A DNA stretch of 64,000 bases from Candidatus Omnitrophota bacterium (lineage in GTDB: Bacteria; Omnitrophota; Gorgyraeia; Duberdicusellales; 4484-171). How positions within the stretch are numbered: position 1 is the stretch's first letter; the number at the start of each line of letters is the position of its first letter. The stretch is taken from positions 102,241 through 166,240 of the forward strand of contig JBAWWL010000005.1 of the NCBI GenBank assembly GCA_037146775.1, written 5' to 3'. Both the position numbers and the translations under genes were made by a program. The notes beneath the pieces are model-generated. The model had not been told where the DNA came from, did not search any database, and worked only from the letters and a program-made list of their open reading frames with translations. Positions 45,827 to 63,633 of the stretch are shown here, piece after piece.

Positions 45827-47431
45827 TTGATGGTTAAACGGCTCGTTGCGGCAATGGGTGTTTGTTTCCTCTGTTTTAGCTGCGCCACTATTTTTTCGCA
45901 AAATATTTTGGATAAATATGACGAAGAGGTTACACTTATCGTCGGCGAAGCCTACGTTATTCCCGTTGCATCCCCTCAGCGTGTCTCTATGCGCAATCCT
46001 GACGTTTCTGATATCGGCAAAGTGAGCGATACGGAAATAGTAATAGTGGCGAAACAGGCCGGAGATACCGCCCTGACGGTATGGGATAAGGAAGGCGAAA
46101 AAGTATTTTATATTACGGTATATGCGCACGATGTAGACCGGATATTCAAGCGCCTGGAAAAACTTATCCGTAAAGATCTGAAAATACCCAATGTGGTGCT
46201 GAAAAAGAATCAAGCGAGCGGTACGGTTATTATAACCGGCGATGTTACCTCCCTCGACAAAGAGCAGATAGATAAAATATTGGAGCCGTTTAAGGAGAAG
46301 GTGGAAAATATTCTCACCGTCAAGAAAGAAACCAAGATGGTTGAGATAGAAGCGCGTATTTTAGAAATAAATAAAACCGAGCTCGATAAATTAGGTGTGC
46401 AATGGATGGAATATATTCAAATACGGCAAGAGCCTTACAAGGCTCCCTCGGCAGATCAAGGCGTTACCACAACGCTAGATCGGCGTAGTGCCTCGGCTAA
46501 TGGGTTTTGGGGTTTTGGAAAATTTTCAAAAGATGCAATCACCGCAAAAATTAATTTACTCATTACCTCGGGGAAAGGAAAAGAATTATCGCGGCCGAAA
46601 CTTTTGTGTTTAAGCGGCGAGGAGGCTAAACTTACCGTTGGCGGCGAGGTACCTTATTTAAGCAGCTCCACCGCTTCTGCGGTAGGTACCACAATCAGTA
46701 TCGCTTACAAAGAATACGGTGTGATTTTAAAAATGCGGCCGATAGTTTCTCTTGATAGCAAAAAAATATTCGCTTCTTTAAGGGCAGAAGTAAGCGCGCT
46801 TGACTGGGAAAACGGCGTAGTGGTTTCCGGCATAAAAATTCCGGCATTCGCTACCCGCGTTGCGGAAACCGTTGTAAATTTACAGTCAGGAGATACTGTT
46901 TTTATCGCAGGCCTTATTAAGAGCAAAGATTCCGAAGGCCTTCAGAAATTTCCTGCATTAGGTAACTTACCTGTTATAGGCAACCTTTTTAGATCAAAAG
47001 AATTTCAGAATAACCAGACGGAACTGGTGATTTCTCTCACGCCCAAGGTCGTGCAGCCGGACGAGAAAGAGGACCTTATGGAAACGACGGAAATTGCCGA
47101 CAAGAAAATTATGGATGTTTACAGCGGTATTATTCCCTCGCAGTTACAGGGTTATATCGTAGAGATTGAAAAAATGATTTCCGGCAACCTTTCTTACCCG
47201 GCATCGCTGATGAATACCGGTTGGGAAGGAATGGTGGTATTGCAGTTGGACATTTTTCATACCGGAGACATAAAGAATGTTAAGGTGTCCAAAACATCCG
47301 GGCACCGTATTTTTGATTCGGACGCAATAAAATTGGTAAAGAGCCTGTCTTTTCCTCCTTTCCCTCCAGATGTCGGCGTTGAGGAATTGAATATAGAAAT
47401 TCCTATAGTGTATCGAGAGAGAAATAAATAG
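45827..47431 (+). CDS. cpaC: Tad secretin CpaC/RcpA with C-terminal TonB-like (TonB_C) domain
   Basis: Secretin core '...GGEVPYLSS...PALGNLPVIGNLFRSKEFQNNQTELVISLTPKVV'. An extra C-terminal approximately 100 aa, 'YPASLMNTGWEGMVVLQLDIFHTGDIKNVKVSKTSGHRIFDSDAIKLVKSLSFPPFP', resembles TonB_C. Confidence 0.8.
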   Translation: MMVKRLVAAMGVCFLCFSCATIFSQNILDKYDEEVTLIVGEAYVIPVASPQRVSMRNPDVSDIGKVSDTEIVIVAKQAGDTALTVWDKEGEKVFYITVYAHDVDRIFKRLEKLIRKDLKIPNVVLKKNQASGTVIITGDVTSLDKEQIDKILEPFKEKVENILTVKKETKMVEIEARILEINKTELDKLGVQWMEYIQIRQEPYKAPSADQGVTTTLDRRSASANGFWGFGKFSKDAITAKINLLITSGKGKELSRPKLLCLSGEEAKLTVGGEVPYLSSSTASAVGTTISIAYKEYGVILKMRPIVSLDSKKIFASLRAEVSALDWENGVVVSGIKIPAFATRVAETVVNLQSGDTVFIAGLIKSKDSEGLQKFPALGNLPVIGNLFRSKEFQNNQTELVISLTPKVVQPDEKEDLMETTEIADKKIMDVYSGIIPSQLQGYIVEIEKMISGNLSYPASLMNTGWEGMVVLQLDIFHTGDIKNVKVSKTSGHRIFDSDAIKLVKSLSFPPFPPDVGVEELNIEIPIVYRERNK

Positions 47432-47486: not shown

Positions 47487-49652
47487 ATGGAAGCGAAAGT
47501 AATATCTTTTTTTAGTACCAAGGGAGGCGTCGGTAAAACACTTGTTTCGTTAAACGTTGCCGTTCAGCTTGCCATACAGAACAAGCGTGTTTTCCTTTTG
47601 GACCTTGATTTGGGCGCACCTCAGGCCACATCGAAATTGATCGGTGTTGACAGCAAATACTGCCTTTTTAACCTCATCGACTATCTCAAAGAATTCAAAG
47701 AGAAAAAAAGAAAAGTAGATAATTATGCGGTAACGTATCAGAATATAATGTTTTTGCCTTCCATTTTTAAAATGTCTCAAAGAACAGCTTTTACTCCCCA
47801 GGTAGTAAAAGATTTTATCTCGGTTATCTGGGACGATTTCGATTACATCATCATCGATGCGGGCAGTAATCTTACCGATAACCTTATCGCGGCACTGGAA
47901 TGCTCAAACCTTATCAGCTTGATTCTTACCCCGGATATTCTGGCGGTATATCAGACACAGTGGCTTATGGACACGTTACAGAGCTTAGGGTTTCCGCTCA
48001 CCATGATTAAGGTGGTGCTGAACCGTGCCGAAAGCAAAGGCTCTATTACCTGGCAGGAGGTAAAGGCATTGCTCCCGGCTGAGACTATAGCTCTCATCCC
48101 TTCGGAAGGCAGGGCTGCCGGCCTTGCCGTTAACCGCGGAGTGCCGCTGGTACTTGATAGCCCGCAGTGCCGGTTTACTCTCGCTATTCAAAAGCTATCC
48201 AAGGATATTGTCGAACGAAAAGACATGTATATCAGCCACAAAAGCCTTTCCGACGTGCGTCTGGCCAAAGAAAAATTTGAGGGAGGAGAAGAGGCTTTCT
48301 GGCAGCGCGTAGGAGTTATAGAACGCGAAGAGAAAGTGGCGTTGATTGAGGAAGAGGATGAAATTATCCGCTTCAAGAAACAAGTCCACGAAAGGCTTAT
48401 CGAAGAGCTTGATTTGAAACGTCTTCATATTGAAACGTACGCCACGAGTCCTCAGAAAATGAATGAGCTAAGAGCCAAAGCGGAAAAGGTGATTTCTAAT
48501 GTTATCAGCAAGGAAGCGGGTGGTTTTATTTCTGCCACCGAGGTACGCAGGCAAATTACCAAGGATATTCTGGAAGAAGCTCTTGGTTTGGGCCCACTCG
48601 AGGACCTTTTGCGTGATCCTACGATAACCGAAGTAATGGTAAACAATAAAGACCAGATCTACATTGAACGCTTTGGTAAGTTAGAGGTAACCAGCAAAAA
48701 ATTTACCACCAACGAACAAGTGAGGATTGTTGTTGAGCGTATCTTGGCGCCGCTGGGCAGACGTATTGACGAGTCGGTTCCTTACGTGGATGCCCGTCTT
48801 CCCGACGGCTCCCGTGTAAACGCAATTATTCCGCCCCTTTCTCTTACTGGCCCCACTCTGACCATAAGAAAATTTGCCAAACAGCGCTGGGGTATGGAGG
48901 ATTTGATAAACCGTTTCGGAAGCCTTACCCATGATATGGCGCTTTTTCTTGAAGCTGCGGTAAGGTCGCGTAAAAATTCGCTTGTTTCCGGAGGCACCGG
49001 TTCGGGGAAAACTACGTTTTTGAATATCTTGTCTGCCTATATTCCCGACAGTGAACGTATTATTTCTATAGAAGATGCGGCTGAATTGAAATTGCGCCAG
49101 GCTCACTGGATTCGTTTGGAATCCCGTCCGCCCAACATCGAGGGCAGAGGCGAAATTACTATCAGAGATTTATTCAGGAATACGTTGCGTATGAGACCGG
49201 ACAGGATCATCGTCGGTGAAGTGCGAGGCAGGGAAGTGTTGGACATGCTTCAGGCAATGAACACCGGCCATGACGGCAGTATGTCTACTATTCACGCCAA
49301 TTCCACACATGACGTTTTAATCAGGCTTGATAGTATGATTTTGATGAGCGGCGTAGAGTTACCGCTGCGTGCTATTAGAGAACAGGTTTCTTCGGCGATT
49401 AACTTAGTGGTTCATACCGCCCGTCTTTCCGATGGTTCGCGTAAAGTAATAGCTATCACTGAAATCATTGGCATGCTTGATGAGACGCATATTAATATGC
49501 AGGACATATTTGTGTATCGCCAGACCGGTGTAGATAAAGATGGCAATGTTCAGGGGTATTACACACCGCTTGGTTATATTCCCACTTTTTACGATGAAAT
49601 CAGGGCCAGAGGTATTGATTTATCCAGGGAAATATTCGTTCCTAAGGATTAA
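47487..49652 (+). CDS. Fusion of TadZ/CpaE-like ParA/MinD ATPase domain and TadA/CpaF secretion ATPase
   Basis: The N-terminal '[22 protein letters not shown]' is a deviant Walker A within a MinD-like domain (approximately 260 aa). The C-terminal approximately 400 aa is CpaF-like ('[13 protein letters not shown]', '[12 protein letters not shown]', His box '[12 protein letters not shown]'). Confidence 0.8.
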
Positions 49653-49670: not shown

Positions 49671-50744
49671 ATGGCACACGGTATAGAAAAGATCCAAAAA
49701 CTGCTGCAAGACCCGAAGATTACCGAAATAATGATTAACGGGTCGCGGGATACCTTCATTGAAATGGGAGGGTTAAAGAATCGCCTCCCAGATTGTATTT
49801 TCACCGAGGAAGACATCAAAGAGATAATTGACGAGTATTTTAATAAAGTAGGTAAACCCGTCAACTACTACAATCCTTTCGGCGACGTATGCATCGAAGA
49901 TGGTTCGCGTTTTAATATTATTACCTACCCGCTTGCCCGCTGCGGCACCTCATTAACTGTTAGAAAATTTAACCGTGAGCTCCACAGCCTGGATGATTTG
50001 ATAAAAGAAGGGACTCTCACCCGCAGGATGGCCGATTTTTTAATCGCTTGCATCCATGGCAGAATCAATGTTTTATTTTCCGGCGCTACCGGAAGCGGTA
50101 AAACCACGACCATGGAAATGCTTTCTTACCATATTCCCGAACAGGAACGTATTGTTACCATTGAAGACACCGCGGAACTTCAGCTGCATCATCCCAATTT
50201 AGTACCCATGGAAACACGTTCTCCCGACCAGGATGGAAAAGGAGAAGTGACTTTGCGCGATCTGATACGTAACGCTTTACGTATGAGGCCGGACAGGATT
50301 ATCGTCGGTGAGGTGCGAGGTCCTGAGGCGTTGGATATGATTCAGGCAATGTCTACGGGCCATCGCGGAACGCTTGGAGTCATTCACGGTAACTCTCCGC
50401 AAGAAATAACCAGCCGTCTTGAAACGCTCATTCTTTCTTCCGGTATACGCTTGCCGCAGGAAGAGATACGCAGGATGATCGGTAACACCCTTAATGTGAT
50501 TATTCAGCAGGAGCGGTTTCCTGACGGAGTAAGGCGTATTACTCATATTTCAGAGGCGCGTGGGGTTGAACGCGGAGAAGTAGCGTTGCAGGATTTATTT
50601 ATCTTTCGCCGTGAAGGTAAAACCCCTGACGGTAAAATCAAAGGTAAATTTAAGACCGTCATGAGAATGTATCCCCGCTTTTTTGCCGATTTCCAAAGGT
50701 TAAAACTGATGGATGAAACGATATTCGGCGAAGATTCTAATTAA
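49671..50744 (+). CDS. Second TadA/CpaF-type secretion ATPase (short form)
   Basis: '[14 protein letters not shown]', '[12 protein letters not shown]', '[12 protein letters not shown]'. It lacks the long N-terminal extension. Confidence 0.85.
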
Positions 50745-50821: not shown

Positions 50822-52273
50822 GTGACGGCTGCAAAGTGCGGGTTAGAAAAAAATATGCGCGCAAAAATCGACGCTCGTTTAAAAAATCTAGTAGTACGTC
50901 TGGCAAAAAGCAATAAAGGTTTGGGGGTGCGTTTATTGGCCAAACTTATCAAAGAGAAACACGGGATTGCTCTTTCTAAAAGCGCCGTACAGAATATTTT
51001 TAAGCAAGGGCATATAAAGCAATCAAGGGGGAGGAAAACTTATCTTTCGCGCTATCAACGCAAAGATATTGTTCCCTGCGGATTTTTGCTGCTTAAAGCC
51101 ATAGATTCTCAAGTCGGGCTCTTTGATTTACTTACGGACCAACTACGAATGTATTTTGCGCGCATGCAGCCGGCATTATTGAAAAAAATCATTATGCTGG
51201 TTACTTTTTCTTCCTATCAAGGCCTCACCACCAAAGTGTCCGCACGGGAACCCGGTTTCTTACGTATCACAGATCTACGCTCTTACCCTGCCAGAAAAGT
51301 TAAGTTTTTTCTCTCGCGCATCGCCGACTACAAGCCCTTAGTGACTGTTGAAAAAATAAAGCCTCTGCTTGAGCCTGTTTCGACAGTAAAATTCTACTTT
51401 GGTAATAACACCGTAGGTTATACCGACGCTAATTTTTCTACTATTTGGGACAGCCCTTGCCGTATTAGCCATTTTTTTCAACCCTATTATTATGTGCTTT
51501 CGAGGCTTTCGGCTATGCTTCGAGACCAGACACTCATTCTTTATTATACGCAAAGTTTTAATTATCTTTCGCCTTTAGTGGTAAGTTTTATCGATGGTTT
51601 AGCTACGGGCATTACCAAGGTAGAATTGCTTGGCCCCAGTGGTGCAGTTATACACCAAGAAAACCATGCTATCCCTAAGCTTTCTTTCTTGATCGGCTAT
51701 TATCCCAAGATAATCGCAAAAGGAATGACCTTTTTAGAGAAAGAGCAGCATTTTAAAAAAGTGGAGGGCTTTTGGCAAGATTTGTCTTACGCGTATATTC
51801 TTACCCGATTTTCGCAGCCCAAAGGGAACAAAGGAATCATCACAAACAGTATTCTGGTAAAAACCATAAAGAAATCTCTTCCTTCCTGGGCTGTGCTTAC
51901 CGATAAAAGGACTAATATCGCCGCACTACTGAAACGTTATTTGTTACTCTGGCCGTATCGGGAAAAGACGTTTCTTGAAGATATGAAAATTATCGAGCGC
52001 TCTTACGTTTTTGAGGAAAGTAAGAAAGATACTCAGTTGCCTGCCCTCACAAGCCTCACCCTAGAGAAAGAATCGGATTTTCTCCATATTGCCGAACTAT
52101 TAGCCGCTCTTTTTAGCGCGCGTGTAGCCCAAGCAAAGTTTAAAGAATTGTCGGGCGAATATGTAACAGGTAAGGAATCCTGCCGGTTGGTTATCACCAG
52201 CCCCCCGGCGTTTAAGGAAAAATTTAACATGAATTGTTTCTTTCTTGGTGGTAAACGCGTTATTTTGCTCTAA
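50822..52273 (+). CDS. Hypothetical soluble protein embedded in the Tad locus (N-terminal HTH-like segment)
   Basis: 483 aa with no TM helices and no recognised domain. The N-terminal 'LGVRLLAKLIKEKHGIALSKSAVQNIF' looks HTH-like. A start at ATG 50855 is also possible. Confidence 0.4.
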   Translation: MTAAKCGLEKNMRAKIDARLKNLVVRLAKSNKGLGVRLLAKLIKEKHGIALSKSAVQNIFKQGHIKQSRGRKTYLSRYQRKDIVPCGFLLLKAIDSQVGLFDLLTDQLRMYFARMQPALLKKIIMLVTFSSYQGLTTKVSAREPGFLRITDLRSYPARKVKFFLSRIADYKPLVTVEKIKPLLEPVSTVKFYFGNNTVGYTDANFSTIWDSPCRISHFFQPYYYVLSRLSAMLRDQTLILYYTQSFNYLSPLVVSFIDGLATGITKVELLGPSGAVIHQENHAIPKLSFLIGYYPKIIAKGMTFLEKEQHFKKVEGFWQDLSYAYILTRFSQPKGNKGIITNSILVKTIKKSLPSWAVLTDKRTNIAALLKRYLLLWPYREKTFLEDMKIIERSYVFEESKKDTQLPALTSLTLEKESDFLHIAELLAALFSARVAQAKFKELSGEYVTGKESCRLVITSPPAFKEKFNMNCFFLGGKRVILL

Positions 52274-52854: not shown

Positions 52855-53160
52855 ATGAAAACAAAAAAGATATCGGCGCAGTCAGTCATTGAATATATTT
52901 GCGTAACCATGGTGTTTGCTGCCGTGGGTATAGGAACTTTTGTTGCGGCAAACCATGCGGCAGTAGCGAATCTGCGCGGTCATGGCACCAACTATCAGTC
53001 TCAGACTAACCTTATGGGTCAAACCACCTATGCCGGTATCGACAAAGAACAATACAACTGGCCTTCTACTTGGGATCAGGCATATCCGGGAACAAGCAGC
53101 AAGCAGGTTCGCCAATTTGTGGATAATCCGGAACAAACTTCAGGACAAGGAGGAGAGTAA
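52855..53160 (+). CDS. Flp/Fap-family type IVb prepilin-like protein 1
   Basis: 'MKTKKISA|QSVIEYICVTMVFAAVGIG' has a class III signal-peptide motif (A|QSxxEY) plus a hydrophobic helix. Confidence 0.7.
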   Translation: MKTKKISAQSVIEYICVTMVFAAVGIGTFVAANHAAVANLRGHGTNYQSQTNLMGQTTYAGIDKEQYNWPSTWDQAYPGTSSKQVRQFVDNPEQTSGQGGE

Positions 53161-53339
53161 TGTTAGCCCATATCAGAAAATCAAAGGCGCAGAGTATTCT
53201 TGAATACGTGTCGTTAACGCTTATTGTATGGGGAGCGTTGTCGGCAATGACATTTTATATTCAGCGGGCGATGGAAGTAAGGACCCGGCATCTTAACCAG
53301 GAATTAAACGAGAATGCCAGAGGAAATGGGATGATTTAA
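53160..53339 (+). CDS. Flp-like prepilin 2 (59 aa, below ORF-track cutoff)
   Basis: ATG overlaps the previous stop (taATG). 'MLAHIRKSKA|QSILEYVSLTLIVWGAL'. Confidence 0.6.
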   Translation: MLAHIRKSKAQSILEYVSLTLIVWGALSAMTFYIQRAMEVRTRHLNQELNENARGNGMI

Positions 53340-53353
53340 AAGGAGCGAGAAAC

Positions 53354-53800
53354 ATGAAGCAACATAACCATAAAATCATGGCTCGAGGGCAAAGCATAAC
53401 AGAGTATTTGATCGTGTTAGCAGCTATTATCGGCGCTATTGTGGCCAGCACTATCGGCATACGTTATGGGGTAAACAGAGGTATGAAGACCGTTAATGAA
53501 AAATTTGAAAAAGGCATTGCTACCAGCAGCGTTCCGGGAAAGCAAAAGGCATATTTACAAACGGAAGAGTCTTACGATGATTCAAGACAGCATAAAACTG
53601 ACCCGGCATGGGAAAACACCGATCAGCCAGGAGGCCCTCAGTATACTGGTGGCTATGAATATGAGGAGTGGGTGCGTAATAATCCCGACAGCGCTTACAA
53701 TGCGCCGGAAGATGGGAAAACATTATATGATACCGGCGTTAAACCGTATCCGGCAAAAAATTATTGGGTAGGCAATGTCAGGGGGCAGAAAGGTAAGTAG
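53354..53800 (+). CDS. Flp-like prepilin 3 with extended C-terminal domain
   Basis: 'MARG|QSITEYLIVLAAIIGAIVA'. 148 aa. Confidence 0.7.
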   Translation: MKQHNHKIMARGQSITEYLIVLAAIIGAIVASTIGIRYGVNRGMKTVNEKFEKGIATSSVPGKQKAYLQTEESYDDSRQHKTDPAWENTDQPGGPQYTGGYEYEEWVRNNPDSAYNAPEDGKTLYDTGVKPYPAKNYWVGNVRGQKGK

Positions 53801-53808
53801 GCGTTTTT

Positions 53809-53973
53809 ATGTATAGAAAAACAAAAGCACAGAGTTTTATCGATTATGCAGCGTTAATTGCGATTATTGTGGTATCGCTGCTAGCCATGTCCGGCTATGT
53901 TATGCGGTCAATTAACGCGAGGGTTGCCCACATGTGGGCGGATTTATATCATCCACAAAACGGAGTAAGGTAG
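53809..53973 (+). CDS. Flp-like prepilin 4 (54 aa, below ORF-track cutoff)
   Basis: 'MYRKTKA|QSFIDYAALIAIIVVSLLAM', identified by manual translation. Confidence 0.6.
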   Translation: MYRKTKAQSFIDYAALIAIIVVSLLAMSGYVMRSINARVAHMWADLYHPQNGVR

Positions 53974-53989
53974 GAGGAGGTGAGTTGTA

Positions 53990-54172
53990 ATGGTTAAGAA
54001 GGCGCAGAGTATTCTCGAGTACGTCATCGTTCTTTCAGCTATCGTAGCAGCAGTTATCGCAATGGCAAGAGGTCCGGTAACGCAGGCGGTAAACAAAATG
54101 TTTACTGATTCATCTAACGTGATCCAGGAGAAGTCGGGCATTTTTTATCAGCAGTCAGCCGGTGGTAAGTAA
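53990..54172 (+). CDS. Flp-like prepilin 5
   Basis: 'MVKKA|QSILEYVIVLSAIVAAVIA'. Confidence 0.7.
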   Translation: MVKKAQSILEYVIVLSAIVAAVIAMARGPVTQAVNKMFTDSSNVIQEKSGIFYQQSAGGK

Positions 54173-54201
54173 GGGGTATTATTCTTGAAGGAGGTGTGAA
54201 A

Positions 54202-54516
54202 ATGTTAACCAGACGTAAAAAGGGACAATCAGTAGCGGAATACGCGATCTTAATTTCTCTTTGCGTTGCCGCATTTATGGGGATACAGAACGAAGTACGC
54301 AGAGCTATTCAGGCTCGCGTTCACGACGCGGCAGTAGAACTAACGCAAGGCGGCACATGGCAATATGAGCCTTCTGCAGGCGTTAAGACGACCACGAACC
54401 AGAAGTCAGAGCGTATTAAAGATGAAAACTGGATTGATAAGGGTGACGTGGATTCAGTGTATCAGAAAGTTGCAGATACCAACAGCGCTGATTACAAATC
54501 CGACGAAACGAAATAA
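54202..54516 (+). CDS. Flp-like prepilin 6
   Basis: 'MLTRRKKG|QSVAEYAILISLCVAAF'. RBS 'gaaggagg' is 7 nt upstream of ATG 54202. Confidence 0.7.
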   Translation: MLTRRKKGQSVAEYAILISLCVAAFMGIQNEVRRAIQARVHDAAVELTQGGTWQYEPSAGVKTTTNQKSERIKDENWIDKGDVDSVYQKVADTNSADYKSDETK

Positions 54517-54567
54517 GGACGCTTATTATTTTATTTTATTACGCACATAACTTAAGGAGGTGCGAAC

Positions 54568-54921
54568 GTGTTAACCAGATGTAGAAAAGCACAAAGTACT
54601 CTTGAATATGCCCTTCTCATCGGAGTGGTGGTAGGAGTGCTGTTGACCATGCAGAACTACTTAAAAAGAAGTATGCAGGGTAAATTACAGGCTACCGCTG
54701 ATGAAATGGGCGAACACTATTCTCCTGGCGATACGAAACGTCACGAACGTCTCTATTCGTCAATCGACAGCGTGACTGAAACGTCGATTTATGGAAAAGC
54801 ATCCGATACTTCCGGTGAAGTCGGAAGAACCCGCACCGTTATTAAGGGCGGAAAACAAGAGCAGGCGGCCACCAGAGAAAACCGCGGTCTTGACAGAGAA
54901 AGATGGGAGCACAAGAAATAA
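54568..54921 (+). CDS. Flp-like prepilin 7 (GTG start)
   Basis: 'MLTRCRKA|QSTLEYALLIGVVVGVLL'. RBS 'aaggagg' precedes it. Confidence 0.65.
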   Translation: MLTRCRKAQSTLEYALLIGVVVGVLLTMQNYLKRSMQGKLQATADEMGEHYSPGDTKRHERLYSSIDSVTETSIYGKASDTSGEVGRTRTVIKGGKQEQAATRENRGLDRERWEHKK

Positions 54922-55001
54922 ATTCCGCCGGGCTTACGCATCGTTGGTGTCAAGTATGGGCAGGGGTGTAAAGTAGTTGTAGTAAACTGAAAGGATGAAT
55001 A

Positions 55002-55328
55002 ATGTTAATGAAACGTAAAGCAGTGACTGTATTGCAGTACAGTTTCCTTATCGCAGTAACGGTGGGAGTATTGCTTACCATGCAAAATTACATAAAACGC
55101 AGTATGCAAGGGCAATTGCAGACTTATAGCGATTCCATGGGTGAGCAATACTCCCGGGGACTGACGAATATACACGACCATTATTCATCCACAGCGAAAA
55201 CCACAGAATGGAAGCTACCCACATTCAATATACGCGGTAATGGCGGCGACTGTACGCATACTCAGGGAACATATACGGCCACCTCGGAACGAGAGCTTTT
55301 ACCTCTTGATGCGGAGCGCTGGAATTAA
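55002..55328 (+). CDS. Flp-like prepilin 8 (variant motif)
   Basis: 'MLMKRKA|VTVLQYSFLIAVTVGVLL', with Q in place of the E+5 residue. Its paralogy to prepilin 7 is evident ('LTMQNYIKRSMQG'). Confidence 0.6.
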   Translation: MLMKRKAVTVLQYSFLIAVTVGVLLTMQNYIKRSMQGQLQTYSDSMGEQYSRGLTNIHDHYSSTAKTTEWKLPTFNIRGNGGDCTHTQGTYTATSERELLPLDAERWN

Positions 55329-55357
55329 CAAACCGTTTTAAGAGCAGCTATAAAAAC

Positions 55358-56035
55358 ATGAATGTAACCAATAAAAGAACAGATTGTTACCGATACGGTT
55401 ATAAAAAGGCACAGTCTTTTCTGATGTACGCCTGTTTAATTGGCATAGTTATCGGAGTACTGTTGACCATGCAGCGTTATATCGGCAGAAGCATGCAAGG
55501 GCTTCTGAAGCAGAATCTAGATAATATGGGCGGTGAAAAAGTGTCCGGTAAACAATATAGTCCTGGACGCTGGTTTGGTTCAAAGAGTTTAGTGCGGGTT
55601 AATACCAGTGGTTTTGACTACGAAGGCAGACATGGTTTTGGTGTGAATATTGCGAACAGCCAGCGTAGCGAATCCGTCCGTATCACCGATACAATTAACC
55701 CCGGAGACCTTCCCCCGGTAAATTTAGATACTAAAAGCGTGCTTGACGGAGAGGATAAGCGGTTGATCCAAGATACGTATGGTTCTGATTTTGATCCGGG
55801 TATAAATAAAGTGGAAAATAATGTGAATGGTGGCGTCCGTGACTGGGAGTATGTGTCGGAGAAAGCGCCGGATAGTGTTGGCGCCAATGCCGACGAGAAT
55901 TTCGATCAGAGAACAAAAAACACCTTTGGCGAACATATTCCTGAGTCCTCTACCGCGGGCGCGGTGGGCGAAAGCAAGGGGCCTAACTACGAAGGAGAAG
56001 CCGGAACCAATTTACCAGAAAATAAGGCACAATGA
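55358..56035 (+). CDS. Flp-like prepilin 9 with large C-terminal domain (225 aa)
   Basis: 'YKKA|QSFLMYACLIGIVIGVLLTMQRYIGRSMQG'. Confidence 0.6.
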   Translation: MNVTNKRTDCYRYGYKKAQSFLMYACLIGIVIGVLLTMQRYIGRSMQGLLKQNLDNMGGEKVSGKQYSPGRWFGSKSLVRVNTSGFDYEGRHGFGVNIANSQRSESVRITDTINPGDLPPVNLDTKSVLDGEDKRLIQDTYGSDFDPGINKVENNVNGGVRDWEYVSEKAPDSVGANADENFDQRTKNTFGEHIPESSTAGAVGESKGPNYEGEAGTNLPENKAQ

Positions 56036-56427
56036 GAAAAGCAAACGCTATTATTGAATATACATTTATTATTGCTATAGTAATTAGTGCTCTTGCGGGC
56101 ATGAATGCGTATTTAAAACGCGTAGTGCAGGCGCACATTAAAAGAGAAACCGATGAGCACTTATATATGCCTTCATCTTTCTTATGGCAAAGTTCAGTTA
56201 CTTTTCGCAGGCAAGAAACCGAGCATGACCGCCGTGAATATGCTCACGGCGATACAGTGGTCAATGTAACCAGTCGCAGTCCGTCGGTGAGTTTGCATGC
56301 GCCTTCTCCGCCCGGGGTTCCGGTGGCGGGTATACATGCGCAGGATGCAGCGTCAGCGCCTCCTGGCCAGAGTAACCCAAGTAATCCGACGAGCGATGAG
56401 CAAACCGAAGTGCCAGCGGCAGATTAA
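56032..56427 (+). CDS. Flp-like prepilin 10
   Basis: 'MRKA|NAIIEYTFIIAIVISALAG'. Start overlaps the previous stop (ATGA). Confidence 0.65.
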   Translation: MRKANAIIEYTFIIAIVISALAGMNAYLKRVVQAHIKRETDEHLYMPSSFLWQSSVTFRRQETEHDRREYAHGDTVVNVTSRSPSVSLHAPSPPGVPVAGIHAQDAASAPPGQSNPSNPTSDEQTEVPAAD

Positions 56428-57032
56428 TGTATTTTATGAAGACCATGAAAAAATTATTTAGCAAAAAAGCCCAGGCAATGGTAGAGTTGGCAATCCTGGG
56501 GCCCCTGCTTTTAATGGCGGTTGGCCTGGTGGTTACCTATGTAGCCAAGATGAATAATGACCAGTGGGTATTGATGGAGGCATTTCGCCGGGCACTCGCC
56601 CATTCTCATGACGAAAACAAAAATGTTGGCTACGGCACCTATGATGACCGCAGAATGGCTTCAGTGCAGGAGCCGATTCTCGGCCAAAAAACTCCTTCAA
56701 GCGGCTCTGCTTGTGTGGTGTGGTCAATTCCCTCGGTAGACGGAGATGGCCAGGACCCTCAAAGTACCACTATTGTAAAAGTAAACGGTGGCATCTGGGC
56801 GATTCCTGGTTATAATGAATATGATCTTGGGCCAGGCGCCGGCGGCGGCGTAGAACCCCTTTATTTAACTGCCAAAGGTTCGAATCTTACTGTTAAAACC
56901 GAAGACGGGGTGACTACCTCAACCCGTTCTGGCGGAGTGGGCGAGTTCATGTTATATAAAATCAATAAAAAGAATCATCCGCAGGGCCGTGGTAGCGGAG
57001 ATTCACGTACCTTTACCGGCCATGCTGACTAG
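56427..57032 (+). CDS. TadE-like pseudopilin
   Basis: 'KKAQAMVELAILGPLLLMAVGLVV' resembles the TadE N-terminal motif (G/A-x-VEFALV-P). Alternative starts at 56436 and 56445. Confidence 0.6.
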   Translation: MYFMKTMKKLFSKKAQAMVELAILGPLLLMAVGLVVTYVAKMNNDQWVLMEAFRRALAHSHDENKNVGYGTYDDRRMASVQEPILGQKTPSSGSACVVWSIPSVDGDGQDPQSTTIVKVNGGIWAIPGYNEYDLGPGAGGGVEPLYLTAKGSNLTVKTEDGVTTSTRSGGVGEFMLYKINKKNHPQGRGSGDSRTFTGHAD

Positions 57033-57081
57033 CGGGTAATATAAACTGTTGTTGTTTTATGGAGACTTAAGGAGGAGACGG

Positions 57082-57342
57082 ATGCGAACGAGAAAAGCCC
57101 AAAGCATATTAGAATCAGTGCTTGCCTATGTTGCCGGAACCGCGCTTTTAGGTGCGGCTATGGGTATTTTTGCCTGGGGCATAGCACATATTCCGATTAG
57201 ACAGGTTACTTATGAGGCAACGCGCATTATTGCCGGAACTCCGCGTTGTCGTATGGTGGATAAAGACGGCGCAAAAAAAACAGGTATCGGCAGTATGCCG
57301 GTTTGGCCGACTTATTTTGTCGGCGGCGGAGTTACGCCATAA
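57082..57342 (+). CDS. Flp-like prepilin 11 (variant)
   Basis: 'MRTRKA|QSILESVLAYVAGTALLGAAMGIFA'. RBS 'aaggagga' precedes ATG 57082. Confidence 0.55.
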   Translation: MRTRKAQSILESVLAYVAGTALLGAAMGIFAWGIAHIPIRQVTYEATRIIAGTPRCRMVDKDGAKKTGIGSMPVWPTYFVGGGVTP

Positions 57343-57639: not shown

Positions 57640-59331
57640 ATGCTTACCTATATGAGAAAAAATATCAAAGCATGTACCAGCCATAACGGCCAGGTTGCGG
57701 TGTATTTTATCGGAGCTATGGCCACCTTAGTGGTAGTGGCTTTTATTATTATTAATATAGGTAAGACTGCCAAAGATAAAACTCATGCGGATAATGCCGC
57801 TGACGCAGCAGCCTTAGCCGGCTGCTCAGTCATGGCTACTTCCTTTAATTATTCTTCTCATGATAACAGTAATGAGCCTCGAGGCGTTGGCGTGCCCGGG
57901 CCAGCAGCAAGTACGGGTTCTCAGGTATCCCTTTCTAATTCCGGCTATAAAGCTGCCATAGGAGGCATGATGCACCGGCATTTCCAACAGGCGCGTAATG
58001 AGTATAAACGCAAAGCTACAGAAGCTAAACGTAAAGCCAGAAAAAATTCTATGGAACGCTCAAACGAGAACCAAACTTCTATGTATGACCCGAGCGCTTT
58101 TGCTGCAGAGAGCGCGGATTATCAAGCTTCCAAAGAAGGCGAAGCCAACCGTTTTAATATCGAACAACAACAGATAGCAGCTGAAGAGTGGAAAGCTTGG
58201 TCTGACCAGCAATATATGGCAAGGTCGTATACTGTTGATAAGCCTGGTTTTGGTTTTGCCGGGACCGGAGGCTCTGTCGGGTTAAGCGGCACTAGTAGGG
58301 TCGCATCTCTTAGTAACGTGCCTACCCCTCAGCCTAGCGATGGTGACGCGGGAGTCGGTGATCCTTATGGTGAAAATGCTGCTTCATCTGGAGAGGCAAA
58401 ATCTTCAGATTACCACAGCCAAGCTTTAGTAGTAGCCTATAAAGTTCTTTTTCAGAATGCGGGCATTCATCACCGTTTGGGCCGTTTAACCAGCAAGATG
58501 TATGAAAAGTTCTTAGAGGGTATTAGCGAGGGAACCGTGCAAAGCGGTATGCCGCTTACTTTCTGGTGGGTGGATGGTGCTGCGCGTTTTCACATGGTGA
58601 CTGGCGTGGTAGAAATCGAATCTGCCAACAAGCATCAAAAAAGAACTACTCCTGGTGGCGGCGCTGGCGCTGCTTCAGTAGCTGCCAGTTTATCTTCTGG
58701 TTGGAAAGGAAAATTTGCTATGACTGGCATTATGGGTTTGCGTATGTCTTCCATGCAATCAGCCACCGGCTATAGCACCCATACCGGACTCAATTCCACT
58801 GCTAAAGGTCATGATATTACCGCCCAGAACCCTTGTTTGTACCCGATCTTCCGGCCCTTAGGTATGGCTACTTCAGGTGCGGCTGAGGGAACTGCGCGTG
58901 GCCAGGGAGATACGCCCAGTGAAATGCATCAGGCTTTAAACGGCGGTGACGCTTTGCCTACTGCTGGTTTAGTCAGTGCTGGATCAAGTCCGATGGGAGC
59001 GGCTTCTATGAAGCTTGCGGTAGGGGGCGGCCCCACTAGCGGAGATCCTACGTATGCTGGTACCATGAGTGACGGAACTCCTAGCGACGATAATGCGGTG
59101 AGAGATGATGAGATTGTTAATTCCCGTATGGTTATGGCTTCCTGTTTTCAGTTTCATATGGGTAGCCCCATTAAAGGCATTGCTGCGGATATCGATGTAA
59201 TGACTTTTTATCCGCCGGTGGTAAGCATGGCAGTAGCCAGCTTTAACTATACTGGTATGGGCAACATTGCTCGTGCTAGTGGCGATGGTTCTGATGCGCG
59301 GCATGAATGCGGCTTGGTAGCAGCATTCTAA
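57640..59331 (+). CDS. TadG-like pilus-assembly protein (TadE/G-like N-terminus, large Gly/Ala/Ser-rich C-terminal region)
   Basis: N-terminal 'NGQVAVYFIGAMATLVVVAFIIINIGKTAKDKTHADNAADAAALAG' matches the TadG-like motif (...QxAADAAALAGA). Confidence 0.6.
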   Translation: MLTYMRKNIKACTSHNGQVAVYFIGAMATLVVVAFIIINIGKTAKDKTHADNAADAAALAGCSVMATSFNYSSHDNSNEPRGVGVPGPAASTGSQVSLSNSGYKAAIGGMMHRHFQQARNEYKRKATEAKRKARKNSMERSNENQTSMYDPSAFAAESADYQASKEGEANRFNIEQQQIAAEEWKAWSDQQYMARSYTVDKPGFGFAGTGGSVGLSGTSRVASLSNVPTPQPSDGDAGVGDPYGENAASSGEAKSSDYHSQALVVAYKVLFQNAGIHHRLGRLTSKMYEKFLEGISEGTVQSGMPLTFWWVDGAARFHMVTGVVEIESANKHQKRTTPGGGAGAASVAASLSSGWKGKFAMTGIMGLRMSSMQSATGYSTHTGLNSTAKGHDITAQNPCLYPIFRPLGMATSGAAEGTARGQGDTPSEMHQALNGGDALPTAGLVSAGSSPMGAASMKLAVGGGPTSGDPTYAGTMSDGTPSDDNAVRDDEIVNSRMVMASCFQFHMGSPIKGIAADIDVMTFYPPVVSMAVASFNYTGMGNIARASGDGSDARHECGLVAAF

Positions 59332-59346: not shown

Positions 59347-60237
59347 ATGAAAAATTATAAATTTTTTATTTTTGGTTTCTTTCTTCTATTTTTCCTGCCT
59401 TTTTTAGCCGAAAGCCAAACAGCTCCCCCTGACACCCCGGCATTCCCCTTACCTATGCATACTGAAAAAATCGGAGAAAGAACCGAAGAGGTTGACGGAT
59501 TTGTTAATACTTTTTACCAATATTTTTCTCAGCTTTCTAGCCAAGAAATTATTGAATTTTACCGTAATGCATTAGTCGAGCAGGGCTTAGAGGAGGTAGA
59601 GGTCTCTCCAGGTCCGGCTTCCGTTGCAGTACATTTTGCTAAAGGTAAAAGCAGAATTGTTTTCGTAGTACTTTATATTTGGAATAAGCCGCTCGACCAG
59701 TGGGCCAAGGAAGATGAAGGAAAGACCGTATATTTTCTCAATGTTTTCGATAATCGCGATGTTTTACAGCTGGCTAACGCCGAATTTAAATATCCGGACA
59801 GGCTTAGCTTCGCTCCGGTGTATCCCCAAGCCAAGCAGTTTTGTTTACGCGATGAGCCTTCTAAATGGAAAGTTGCTGCTTACTTAAGCGACGGCGAGGT
59901 TGAAAAAATAGCTAACTTTTATATGAAAGAAATGCCGCAGTATAATTGGAAGTTTACCGGTACCAATAGTTATGAAAGCAACCAGAATATTGTCGACGCT
60001 CTCTTAAACGGCGACCCTAACCCGAAAAAACTTTCCGGAGAAGAAATGATGCCGGGAGTAACCGTAGACGTGAAAGGAGCCACTTTAACGTATGCACAAG
60101 GAGACGGTAAACGTTGTGCTATCAATATTATGCAGTTTCGTGATCCGCCGGACGTGCTCGCGCAGCACAGAATTAACCCGAGTGCTTTTAAAAAATACGG
60201 CAATATTTATATCAGTTTAGTGGTGTATGACCAGTGA
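59347..60237 (+). CDS. Secreted protein, paralog family member 1 (unknown function)
   Basis: Signal peptide 'MKNYKFFIFGFFLLFFLPFLAES'. Shares 'xxFYRNALVEQG...' and the C-terminal pattern with the 60453 and 61307 proteins. Confidence 0.55.
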   Translation: MKNYKFFIFGFFLLFFLPFLAESQTAPPDTPAFPLPMHTEKIGERTEEVDGFVNTFYQYFSQLSSQEIIEFYRNALVEQGLEEVEVSPGPASVAVHFAKGKSRIVFVVLYIWNKPLDQWAKEDEGKTVYFLNVFDNRDVLQLANAEFKYPDRLSFAPVYPQAKQFCLRDEPSKWKVAAYLSDGEVEKIANFYMKEMPQYNWKFTGTNSYESNQNIVDALLNGDPNPKKLSGEEMMPGVTVDVKGATLTYAQGDGKRCAINIMQFRDPPDVLAQHRINPSAFKKYGNIYISLVVYDQ

Positions 60238-60282
60238 AATTTTACTTGTGTATGGAATAGTTTACAATAAAATATAAATGGT

Positions 60283-60450
60283 AGTTATGAAAAATAAAAG
60301 ATCCAAATCTCAGGCAATACTCACCTACGCAGCGCTTATCGCTATCGTCATTACCGTGCTTATTATTATGTGGGGCTATATCCAGCGCCGAGTGCAGGGT
60401 GTGTACCAGGCAGCTGGCGATTCTATCGGCGAAGGCGAGCAGAAAGATTA
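60283..60450 (+). CDS. Flp-like prepilin 12 (55 aa, below ORF-track cutoff)
   Basis: Manual translation gives 'MVVMKNKRSKS|QAILTYAALIAIVITVLIIMWGYIQRRVQG...'. Confidence 0.5.
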
Positions 60451-60452
60451 AC

Positions 60453-61295
60453 GTGGCTTTTAAAAAATATATAACAAGCTTATTCTTCCTGATAACTTTT
60501 TTTCTGCAATGTTTTGTGTGTGCGGCTGACTTGCCTTGTCCCGCTTCAAGTGAATTAGTCCAACAATCACAACAGGATACCGCGAATATGAATAATACGA
60601 GCTATGAATACCGCTCCAAACTTTCTAAAGAAGAAATAACTTCCTTTTACCGTACCCTATTTCTTACACAAGGCATGAAAGAAAATCCTGCCACAAAAGA
60701 TACTCTGGTATTTGCAAAATTCCCCCAAAAAATAGTGACCATTACTTTTAGCTCGGATCCGGACGGCCAAGTACGTTTTATGTTTACGAAAAGCGAGTTT
60801 ACCAAGATGCAAATTGTGCCTACCCAGGATTTCAAAAGTCCGCAAACTCTCGATTTTATGCCTACCTATACCCAAAGCCAACAATTTGTCTATAACACTT
60901 TTTACTATCCGATGATCGGCATAGCGTATCTTTCGCGCAGCCAACCCGATGATGTGGCTGGTTTTTATACCAAAAGAATGTCTTCTTTTGGCTGGCAGCT
61001 GGCTTCCGATACACCGCAGCAGGGAACGTACGATCTTTTTGCCTGGATAAGGGTAATTGATCCCTTCACCAAGGCAATACCAATGCTTCAGGTTACCGGA
61101 TATCAGGAATTGGCTCCGCCGCTTAAGCTTCGCGGTAGAACGCTGACCTTTAAACAGGAGGGCAAAAGCTGCACTATTACCATTTATAAATTCGAAGATA
61201 TTATTGCTAAGGCTCAAGGTACTGCCTGGGATGCGAGTCCTTTTCAGCAATATGGCGATACGGTTATTGCGGTGTATTATTTTTCAAAAACATAA
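60453..61295 (+). CDS. Secreted protein, paralog family member 2
   Basis: A GTG start just after the prepilin-12 stop gives the signal peptide 'VAFKKYITSLFFLITFFLQCFVCAA'. 'SFYRTLFLTQGM' and the end '...VIAVYYFSK' parallel member 1. The longer ATG ORF (60399) overlaps the prepilin gene. Confidence 0.5.
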   Translation: MAFKKYITSLFFLITFFLQCFVCAADLPCPASSELVQQSQQDTANMNNTSYEYRSKLSKEEITSFYRTLFLTQGMKENPATKDTLVFAKFPQKIVTITFSSDPDGQVRFMFTKSEFTKMQIVPTQDFKSPQTLDFMPTYTQSQQFVYNTFYYPMIGIAYLSRSQPDDVAGFYTKRMSSFGWQLASDTPQQGTYDLFAWIRVIDPFTKAIPMLQVTGYQELAPPLKLRGRTLTFKQEGKSCTITIYKFEDIIAKAQGTAWDASPFQQYGDTVIAVYYFSKT

Positions 61296-61306
61296 AGAGG
61301 TGAACC

Positions 61307-61804
61307 ATGGACTATAAACGCGTTATTTTTTTATTCGCTTGGTTTTTTGTTTTTATTGCTGCCATGACTCAAACCGAAAAGCTTACAAAGCTTACCCCGC
61401 GTAATACCGAATTAATTGACCGCCGGCAGCAAAAACCAGAGCAGTATGTTACGGTAACAAACTATAAGTATGCTACCTTAGCTCGCCAAGACGAAGTAGT
61501 GCAATTTTATCGCAAAATGTTTACAAACGACGGCTTTTCTGAAGTACGTGGCTATTCGCCTGATGGCCAGTCTCAGGGGCCCATTCCACAGTCTCAGTCG
61601 TTCTTTTTCTTTACCAAGCCCAATACTATGGTTATGCTCAATTTGCTTCTACAGCAAGAGAGGGGCCGGCATATTTACTATGTTACCGTCAACGAACTTG
61701 ATTCCAAAGCCGCTAAAACTTTTGTTAATGAAATGAATCAAAATACGGGTGCCCAAGAAGGACCTCTTGAGTCTGAAGCAACCGAGGTAACTCCGCAAGA
61801 GTAA
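61307..61804 (+). CDS. Secreted protein, short paralog family member 3
   Basis: Signal peptide 'MDYKRVIFLFAWFFVFIAAMTQT'. 'VQFYRKMFTNDGFSE' shares the FYR motif with members 1 and 2. Confidence 0.5.
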   Translation: MDYKRVIFLFAWFFVFIAAMTQTEKLTKLTPRNTELIDRRQQKPEQYVTVTNYKYATLARQDEVVQFYRKMFTNDGFSEVRGYSPDGQSQGPIPQSQSFFFFTKPNTMVMLNLLLQQERGRHIYYVTVNELDSKAAKTFVNEMNQNTGAQEGPLESEATEVTPQE

Positions 61805-62130: not shown

Positions 62131-62787
62131 TACACTATTGTCAGGCCCAAGCTTCCTGGTTAGCCGCCATCACAAGAATCACACTTCCTAAAATCAAGTA
62201 AAATCAAGGGTCAAACCTCAAAACTAAAAACTAGCTTTTTGACAGGGAAAAATGAACCTATTTTTATAAGGATAAAGTTGAGGGCGGGAGACAAGTTTCT
62301 CTCTATTTATCAAACAAGGCGCGTAGATAGTAAAAATTTTGGTGTAAAATTTTATTTCTTGGTAAACAACAAAAAGATCAGGTAATAAACAATAACCATA
62401 ACCAGAAAGGCTATTATATGGTTTTGATTGCCGTTGCACACTGAAGGTAAGATGAGATCAAGGCTTATGAGTTTAAAATAGTTTAAATGCCTGGCCGTGC
62501 CCTCGGTGATGGTGCGTCCAATCACGATACCAATGTGTACTGCTGCGGAAAGCAAAATTAATTTGAAAAAAGCATCTATAAACCGGTTTGCTGTTATTTT
62601 TGCCATTGATGTATAGACCTCCTTTTATGCTATTGTAGCACTTTTTGACCACGAAGCAATTTGCGATTGAAAAGTGCGGAAAAAAAACGTATAATAAATG
62701 TAATAATCATAGAGACTATAATAAGTATATACCCGTTCGTAAAAAAACTATAGTCCCGAAGCCGTAACGCTATACAAAGGAGAGAGC

Positions 62788-63633
62788 GTGTTATATTTTT
62801 CTTACATTCTGCTTACTGCCGCAATCGTTATATTTTCTTACTACGGCGTAACGATGGCATTAAAGCAGTGGGACCAAACCCAGAAGCGCCGCGCAGAAGA
62901 AGTTACCTCCCAGTTCGAGAACATGTTTATCTTCATTAACAAGAAGATGCTTCTTCTTCTCTTTCCTATTGTTGCGCTGGCTCTGGCAGCCCTGGGTTAT
63001 ATCTTTACGAAAAAATGGTGGATTGGCGCCGTTCTTTTAGCGGTCGGTTTTTTAGCCCCTTCCTGGGTCATGCATCAGCTTGACCAGCGCCGCCGGAAGA
63101 AATTTGTCCTGCAGCTGGTGGACGGCCTGATGATTATGAACAGCTGTTTAAAGGGAGGCCTTACCTTAACTCAATCGTTTGAGGTTTTAGCCGAGGAGAT
63201 GGCTCCGCCGCTAAGCCATGAGGCGGCGCTCTTAAACCGCGAGATTAAAGTCGGCGTCACACTCGAAGAGGCGCTTTTGCGTCTTGAGCGCAGGATGCCG
63301 TCGGAAGAAATGACCTTAGTTACTTCAGCGGTATTGGTGGCGAGAGAGACCGGAGGAGATCTTACAAAAGTATTTTCGCGATTAGTTGAAACCATCCGTG
63401 ATAGGATTAAACTTCGCGAGCTTGTTACCACACTCACCTTGCAGGCGCGCCTGCAATCCATTGTAATTTCACTCTTGGGCCCTGTATTTTTTATAACGGT
63501 GCGTAAAATACAACCTACGCATTTTGATATCATGATGCAGGATGATCTGGGGCGAATGCTTTTAGGTATTGCGCTTATTTTGCAGATACTAGGTATTGTG
63601 TTGATTGTTATCTTTGGAAAGATAGAAGTATGA
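62788..63633 (+). CDS. tadB: Tad pilus inner-membrane platform protein TadB (GspF-like domain)
   Basis: N-terminal TM, a cytoplasmic T2SSF-like helical domain ('...FEVLAEEMAPPLSHEAALLNREIKVGVTLEEALLRLERRMP...') and C-terminal TMs. Confidence 0.75.
   Translation: MLYFSYILLTAAIVIFSYYGVTMALKQWDQTQKRRAEEVTSQFENMFIFINKKMLLLLFPIVALALAALGYIFTKKWWIGAVLLAVGFLAPSWVMHQLDQRRRKKFVLQLVDGLMIMNSCLKGGLTLTQSFEVLAEEMAPPLSHEAALLNREIKVGVTLEEALLRLERRMPSEEMTLVTSAVLVARETGGDLTKVFSRLVETIRDRIKLRELVTTLTLQARLQSIVISLLGPVFFITVRKIQPTHFDIMMQDDLGRMLLGIALILQILGIVLIVIFGKIEV

Follow-up and report, generated by a model that had tools for sequence, protein, structure and literature searches.

What do three similar, unannotated genes contribute to a bacterial pilus cluster? 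We studied a stretch of 64,000 nucleotides (hereafter the window) from a Candidatus Omnitrophota bacterium, contig JBAWWL010000005.1, which contains a Tad cluster and in it three genes, here named A, B and C, that lie between a TadG-like minor pilin gene and a TadB/TadC-type platform gene. An original prediction had proposed that they encode three paralogous signal-peptide proteins, possibly pilus-tip adhesins, chaperone-like assembly factors or secreted substrates. Our results indicate that A, B and C are very likely accessory parts of the Tad pilus machine, because the family to which they belong always sits at one position of the Tad cluster.

The open reading frames (ORFs) claimed at 59347, 60453 and 61307 are all present in the ORF list, and they are encoded inside a cluster of TadA, TadB/C, secretin, RcpC, Flp and TadE/G-type genes. 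Pfam and NCBIfam matches for RcpC, the secretin, a TadZ-TadA fusion, a second TadA, and the TadE-like, TadG-like and TadB proteins support this Tad setting. BLASTP aligned A with B over their full length (E 2e-27, 25% identity), and C with the N-terminal ~130 aa of A (2e-7) and of B (7e-6), so that the similarity is well above chance and the proteins are indeed paralogous. The FYR blocks EFYRNALVEQG, SFYRTLFLTQGM and QFYRKMFTNDGF were all found in the alignment of the three, and the Tyr of the block is at least 90% conserved in an alignment of 54 family members. A similar hydrophobic C-terminal end, which had been assigned to all three proteins, occurs in A (YGNIYISLVVYDQ) and B (YGDTVIAVYYFSKT) and was wrongly assigned to C, which lacks the whole second domain and terminates in an acidic, low-confidence tail.

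The original prediction also overlooked an internal duplication. Weak matches link the second half of B to C and to the first half of A, and the profile-profile comparison of the N-module and C-module halves of the 54-member alignment gave a probability of 91% (E 1e-6). The AlphaFold2 (AF2) model of A, calculated with the same alignment as input (predicted local distance difference test, pLDDT, 89.3; predicted template modelling score, pTM, 0.81), has two modules with their secondary-structure elements in identical order: a beta-hairpin, one helix and then three or four antiparallel strands, in ~100-150 residues. The helix carries the motif FYRxxxxxxG or FYxKxMPxxxW in the modules of A, and FYRxxxxxxG[W/F] in the family; additional short helices are present in the second module of A. 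On the basis of the profile-profile match and of the common order of elements in the models, A and B each consist of one alpha+beta module duplicated in tandem, and C has the module once. The AF2 model of C (pLDDT 86.3) showed accordingly a single module followed by a C-terminal helix and the low-confidence tail.

The family became apparent by a full HMMER scan only, since word-indexed protein searches with A, with A, B and C together, or with the 54-member alignment gave just the proteins of the window's own metagenome-assembled genome (MAG), P0003 and P0049. That scan, run with the A/B/C profile over 1.84 billion cluster representatives, yielded 401 proteins at E<=1e-3, of which 170 reached <=1e-10 and 50 reached <=1e-30. 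Most of them are two-module proteins of 270-340 aa, many are single-module proteins of 130-150 aa, and a few are long repeat arrays. The named members of the Tad-linked group are all Candidatus Omnitrophota; a genome scan likewise gave eight loci, every one in an Omnitrophota MAG, with a bias to B-like genes that comes from the B-like peptide patterns used in it.

No similarity to a known unrelated family was found in Pfam, NCBIfam or PDB sequence searches. Pfam and NCBIfam scans of A, B and C gave no match, and Pfam scans of the 54 members and of single-module and repeat relatives gave nothing consistent (including no tetratricopeptide repeat, TPR, across the 54 members), PF27226 not being among the models scanned in either case. 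Precomputed hits to PF27226 ('AF_1845') are recorded for A, B and relatives; the unmarked ones (E<=1e-5) are limited to the repeat arrays and to P0134, a two-module protein on a short contig, and those in the other Omnitrophota proteins examined are weak or faint. PF27226 has in common with the family the motif at the start of the module (hydrophobic-P-x-P...) and the helix FY...GW. Judged by sequence, its relation to the Tad-linked proteins would be at most at the superfamily level, without functional information, and we found no mention of AF_1845 or PF27226 in the papers searched. The repeat arrays P0099, P0140 and P0141 are secreted, Anaerolineae-type proteins encoded outside Tad loci, with 4-6 or more tandem modules of the pattern DIPLMADA...SYxSxxSxxxVxxFYxxxMPxxGW. 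As their sequences suggest, this repeat module is a broad, undescribed extracytoplasmic domain.

By hidden Markov model (HMM) and phmmer searches and the called genes of the contigs, we mapped 15 distinct loci, i.e., the window and 14 more (individual loci are labelled L001 and so on). The family had one and the same place in all of them, in the order TadE-like, small pseudopilin, TadG-like, one or more family genes interleaved with a small Flp, TadB and TadC; the search of other Tad loci that had been suggested as a check therefore found the family at the same position in each of the 14 further loci. Wherever a locus had upstream flank (11/11), the TadG-like gene stood immediately before the first family gene. 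TadB/TadC lay downstream of the family genes in 15/15 loci and nearly adjacent to them in 12, with one to three unrelated genes in between in L005, L008 and L009. Even the distant members P0062, P0072, P0066, P0104 and P0112 (E 1e-13 to 1e-23) kept the fixed position; the contigs of P0134 and P0149 were too short to reveal their gene neighbourhood. That ordinary periplasmic proteins of unrelated function came to lie in a Tad locus by coincidence is effectively refuted by this synteny and seems to us extremely improbable. The module is generic and is also found outside Tad loci, as such a coincidence would allow, but the position is the same in all 15 loci, distant members included, the gene junctions are tight, and the 64-kb window has three matches to the family profile only, all of them at this site.

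The number of family genes differs among loci (Table 1), from one two-module gene to the complete set of A, B and C; in three of the loci with the complete set (L001, L003 and L007), the A-like gene is cut by the contig end. The single-module pair of L020 stands in place of a two-module gene. When the locus proteins were compared all against all by BLAST, A, B and C each had their best match at the syntenic position of other MAGs: A in the first family gene of L006, L002 and L004 (31-33% identity), B in the second family gene of L002-L007 (40-46%, and 76% to its L001 orthologue P0003), and C in the third gene of L001, L005, L002, L006, L007, L003, L004 and L008 (31-37%). The groups also have their own sequence marks: A-like proteins end in ...RINPxxFxKYGNIxI, and B-like proteins contain LDFMPxY, DPFTKAIP and CTITIYKFEDI. 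A recent tandem duplication was rejected, as every paralogue has its own orthologues. By this pattern of matches, A, B and C represent three orthologous groups that separated long ago and have persisted together, and this persistence speaks for roles that are distinct and not redundant.

In the 54-member alignment the invariant residues are P157 and W201 only, and the near-invariant columns contain P, W, Y, F, L, M and G plus one Cys; no D, E, H, K, R, S or T is conserved in these columns. An enzyme was rejected on the absence of conserved polar residues of catalytic type, and A, B and C are probably non-enzymatic. PDB sequence searches with two family profiles and with P0099 found no match with E below 0.2, and Foldseek comparison of the A and C models with the PDB gave no match at E<=1e-3; the best, all non-significant, were TplEi for A (1.4e-3) and DcrB for C (5.3e-2; template modelling, TM, score 0.33-0.39).

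Export was scored by simple sequence rules on the 148 family members that begin with Met. An uncharged run (median length 16 residues) occurred within the first 45 residues of 138 of the 148, preceded by K/R in 132 of these 138; a cleavage site of the AxA/Q type, [AVSTGCIL]-x-[AGS]/Q (the slash stands for the cleavage point), was found in 58 members. A lipobox was found in none of the 138 scored members. The signal peptides proposed for A, B and C are in agreement with these data, and their own N-termini have the n-h-c arrangement of the Sec type. By such rules the three proteins would be substrates of signal peptidase I released to the periplasm. The prepilin motif K-[AG]-Q-S-x-x-E-Y is absent from A, B and C, although ~13 pilin-like genes of the locus carry it, and we rejected their identity as pilins or TadE-F-G pseudopilins on the lack of a prepilin (class III) motif. 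A lipoprotein pilotin or secretin-associated lipoprotein (TadD/CpaO, RcpB/CpaD) was rejected for lack of a lipobox and of TPRs. A third candidate, an N-terminal docking signal like that of TcpF, was rejected because the conserved N-terminal motif, LPxPxxTEL, belongs to the start of the fold and recurs at each repeat of the Anaerolineae proteins.

The prepilin gene said to be interleaved with the family genes was recovered between A and B, with two possible starts (Table 1); its product reads KSQAILTY and has Thr instead of Glu at position +5 (Glu5). In the other loci, the residue at +5 of the syntenic Flp was T, V, S, A, Q or I (L001, L002, L004-L007, L010, L016, L017 and L020); Glu5 was kept only in the Flp of L013, and 11/12 lineages lacked it. 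In the type II secretion system (T2SS), GspK, a pseudopilin without Glu5, is the tip-most one and caps the pseudopilus tip; by this analogy the Glu5-less Flp is a candidate capping or initiating subunit.

Which part of the machine, then, could A, B and C form? We tentatively propose, at somewhat less than an even chance, that they are soluble proteins of the periplasm and work as partners with the TadG-like minor pilin and the Glu5-less Flp in a tip or priming complex. The proteins would be exported via Sec and, after cleavage of the signal peptide, act as soluble periplasmic subunits. They would probably form a hetero-complex that contacts both the TadG-like minor pilin and the Glu5-less Flp and helps in assembling, stabilising or presenting the tip (priming) complex, the starting point for growth of the Flp filament. 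This proposal draws on the constant adjacency to the TadG-like gene, the arrangement in L016 (where a family gene follows each of the two TadG-like genes and the small Flp lies between the two pairs), the embedded Glu5-less pilin and the analogy with pilY1. Several points weigh against it: gene adjacency is no proof of interaction; the copy number of the family differs by lineage and does not strictly track that of the TadG-like gene; the module is also present in Anaerolineae multi-repeat proteins outside the Tad context, so that its fold is generic, with nothing pilin-specific; and cleavage of the signal peptide rests on simple sequence rules.

The site beside TadB/C also suggests another role, in which A, B and C would be periplasmic ring or alignment subunits, or secretin-associated ones, that link RcpC, the secretin and TadB/C and functionally replace the CpaI adaptor, the CpaD/RcpB lipoprotein and TadD/CpaO. 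We consider it rather unlikely. Three ancient, non-redundant groups at a fixed site next to TadB/C would fit stoichiometric parts of a machine, and in T2SS operons GspL and GspM come after the minor pseudopilins. Moreover, the scan of genes in the locus revealed no TPR or lipoprotein accessory, and canonical Tad machines require periplasmic adaptors (Caulobacter cryo-electron tomography preprint, 10.1101/2025.11.06.686991). However, a distance of 9 kb separates A, B and C from rcpC and the secretin gene, and they are embedded among pilin-type genes; they have no lipobox and no similarity to the T2SS-T3SS_pil_N, RcpC or TPR families; ring subunits would not usually vary in their number of genes and modules as these proteins do (1 to 3 genes); and the two TadG-family gene pairs of L016 are also contrary to such a role. 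In addition, as the genome was partly examined, analogues of TadD or RcpB may lie elsewhere in it.

Exported cargo, or adhesins or host-recognition factors displayed on the pilus, would be carried on the tip minor pilins and attach to host or prey. This idea, which we take to be unlikely, follows the logic of pilY1, i.e., a protein with a Sec signal and no pilin motif encoded among minor-pilin genes, and two other observations agree with it, the variation in copy number by lineage and the related module in long repeat arrays of secreted Anaerolineae proteins, which is typical of binding domains. The Tad pili of Omnitrophota have also been proposed to serve in attachment or predation (PMC10066038). 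Nevertheless, the rapid diversification expected of host-recognition adhesins is not seen here, since the groups are old, their synteny is kept across MAGs that are 25-45% identical, and their hydrophobic cores are conserved. The proteins are also small (~110-260 mature residues), have no recognisable adhesin domains and lack a conserved flexible N-terminal secretion segment, the position of which is taken by the start of the fold. The constant position after the TadG-like gene, the three ancient groups, the absence of conserved polar residues and the Glu5-less Flp together lead us to favour fixed, non-redundant accessory parts of the machine or of its tip over fast-evolving adhesins or cargo.

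A more specific version of the tip proposal, in which A, B and C join the TadG-like protein and the Glu5-less Flp in a tip module specific to the phylum, as part of a Tad apparatus used for predation or parasitism, is more speculative still and we hold it to be quite improbable. If true, this module would represent a new class of tip subunits other than pilins, which sets the docking of ultra-small Omnitrophota onto host or prey, and the Anaerolineae repeat relatives would point to a widespread, undescribed extracellular binding domain.

Table 1 Features of the Tad cluster in the window and of related loci. Locations without a locus label are positions in the window.
Feature	Location	Strand	Remarks
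PPIC-type peptidyl-prolyl isomerase gene	44022-44918		directly upstream of rcpC
RcpC/CpaB	45011-45814	+	Pfam/NCBIfam
Secretin with C-terminal TonB_C domain	45827-47431	+	T2SS-T3SS_pil_N and Secretin; TonB_C E 3e-14
TadZ-TadA fusion	47487-49652	+	721 aa; ParA/TadZ-like and T2SSE (TadA) domains
Second TadA-type ATPase	49671-50744	+	357 aa; Pfam/NCBIfam
~480-aa protein	50822-52273		between ATPases and pilin array; weak N-terminal helix-turn-helix (HTH) or transposase-like signal
Flp-like pilin array	52855-56427	+	~10 genes; K-[AG]-Q-S-x-x-E-Y; upstream part of same operon
TadE-like pseudopilin	56427-57032	+	201 aa; PF07811 TadE E 0.0045, below curated cut-off
Small pseudopilin-like protein	57049-57342	+	KAQSILES; between TadE-like and TadG-like genes
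TadG-like large minor pilin	57640-59331	+	563 aa; PF13400 Tad E 4.3e-8; 15-nt gap to A
Family protein A	59347-60237	+	296 aa; Sec signal peptide, two homologous alpha+beta modules; ORF list
Small Flp-like prepilin	60286-60451 (alternative ATG 60278)	+	54-57 aa; KS/QAILTY
Family protein B	60453-61295	+	280 aa from GTG 60453; signal peptide, two modules
Family protein C	61307-61804	+	165 aa; signal peptide, one module, C-terminal helix, acidic low-confidence tail; C-like group
~84-aa hydrophobic protein	62352-62606; L001 2207-2467; L005 19498-19752	-	between C and TadB
TadB/TadC-type platform protein (T2SSF)	62788-63633	+	PF00482 E 2.1e-18; next conserved Tad gene after the trio
One two-module family gene	L009, L010, L013, L017
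Two TadG-like genes, each then a family gene	L016 8668-13365		small Flp between pairs
Two single-module genes flanking small Flp	L020 8001-9045		family HMM 1e-36 and 6e-36
B plus C	L005, L008
A plus B plus C	window, L002, L004, L006; also L001, L003, L007
Interleaved small Flp	L002 9693-9851; L004 10797-10991; L005 10892-11059; L006 3437-3613; L010 10827-11198; L016 10905-11108; L017 11027-11293; L020 8479-8637
~470-480-aa protein	L004 891-2312; L005 1552-2997; L008 2560-3984; L010 2560-3993; L016 2929-4350; L017 1779-3188; L020 568-2001
PRFKPW-motif protein	L008 19240-20877; L012 4080-4688; L013 3707-4624; L016 17756-20923; L017 15494-17326		downstream of TadC
Repeat array P0099	L015 5312-6850		Anaerolineae-type

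The limits of the three genes are given in Table 1, and the start of B deserves comment. The mechanical ORF opens at GTG 60399, and GTG 60453, one base past the stop of the Flp-like gene, is favoured both by the family alignment and by the Joint Genome Institute (JGI) metagenome orthologue P0003, with whose called start it agrees. The NCBI call for B (P0002, 235 aa, beginning MNNTSYEY) is probably too short, since it lacks the signal peptide as well as the conserved LPxPxxxEL segment; the NCBI record lists the proteins of this MAG as Candidatus Omnitrophota bacterium, WCI77_05635. C is preceded by the Shine-Dalgarno sequence AGAGGTGA. The gaps of 15 nt from the TadG-like gene to A, 1 nt from the Flp to B and 11 nt from B to C are consistent with a single operon.

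Other genes of the cluster were also conserved. The TadE-like gene kept its position in all loci, and phmmer matches to the small pseudopilin lay at the same position in L002, L004, L005, L008, L009, L016 and L017. The tandem ATPase pair (TadZ-TadA fusion and second TadA) was kept in L005, L008, L010 and L016, and the Flp-like array, whose products are very uneven in length (54-225 aa), was kept gene for gene in L002, L004, L005, L008, L009, L010, L016 and L017. Two pilins of the array in the window, at 55002 (KAVTVLQY) and 55358 (KAQSFLMY), also lack Glu5. The ~470-480-aa protein, for which no family match was found beyond the weak HTH or transposase-like signal, is encoded between the ATPases and the pilin array in every locus and is another uncharacterised core gene of this type of locus. 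The TonB_C domain on a Tad secretin is an unusual fusion, and the ~84-aa protein of the minus strand, which is also conserved, had no Pfam match. Large proteins (305 to >1000 aa) encoded downstream of TadC have a common N-terminal motif, ...PRFKPW.R..AF......QD, and may be another conserved partner of the locus; the equivalent region lies beyond the end of the window.

The Omnitrophota are uncultivated and mostly ultra-small, and Tad pili are the main genomic argument for their host-attached or predatory life (PMC10066038). Our analysis defines a conserved, unannotated family at one fixed site in every Omnitrophota Tad cluster examined, and its three persisting old paralogues add specific, testable parts to the Tad machine. 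The family profile, the confident models and the gene-order signature (TadG-like, family gene, Glu5-less Flp, TadB/C) could improve annotation, and the results could guide interaction and cryo-electron tomography studies in the one available co-culture, Velamenicoccus archaeovorus.

Among known systems, A, B and C can be compared with the non-pilins PilY1 of type IVa pili and TcpF/CofJ of type IVb pili, which ride on or bind minor-pilin tip complexes. The likeness is one of gene logic and not of ancestry: a Sec rather than a prepilin signal, genes near those of minor pilins and, as proposed, the largest minor pilin as a partner. No similarity to these proteins, in sequence or in fold, was detected for A, B and C, which have no conserved flexible N-terminal docking peptide and, compared with PilY1, are far smaller and have neither a beta-propeller nor a von Willebrand factor A domain. 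GspL/GspM and PilN/PilO resemble the three proteins in their small size, N-terminal hydrophobic helix and alpha+beta periplasmic domain, and their genes also follow those of minor (pseudo)pilins beside the platform gene. Nevertheless, they are bitopic with uncleaved anchors, whereas the A/B/C family has a short uncharged run and frequent AxA/Q sites, features that speak for cleavage; homology with them was not detected. At the level of the fold, the best Foldseek matches, none of them significant, were Mog1/PsbP/DcrB/LpqN-like proteins (DcrB 6e8a, probability 0.87; PsbP 4rth; LpqN 6e5d; MTC28 4pws; TplEi 5h7z), all of them exported alpha+beta sandwich proteins with a non-enzymatic binding role.

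Tad clusters of Omnitrophota have already been reported and tied to a host-dependent or predatory lifestyle (Seymour et al. 2023, PMC10066038), in an analysis that tracked only TadB, TadC, RcpA, TadZ and Flp; we did not find the A, B and C genes mentioned in the papers searched on Omnitrophota Tad. Nor do they match any canonical Caulobacter Tad component (CpaA-M and O, as listed in 10.1101/2025.11.06.686991). The locus of the window has RcpC, secretin, TadZ, TadA, Flp, TadE/TadG-like and TadB/C in common with the Tad/Flp (type IVc) loci of A. actinomycetemcomitans (tad) and Caulobacter (cpa), and differs from a typical Tad locus in its TadZ-TadA fusion plus second ATPase, its ~10 Flp paralogues and its TonB_C-bearing secretin. 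We thus regard A, B and C as an accessory family that is new and restricted to the phylum, in a machine of a known kind, rather than as a new type of system.

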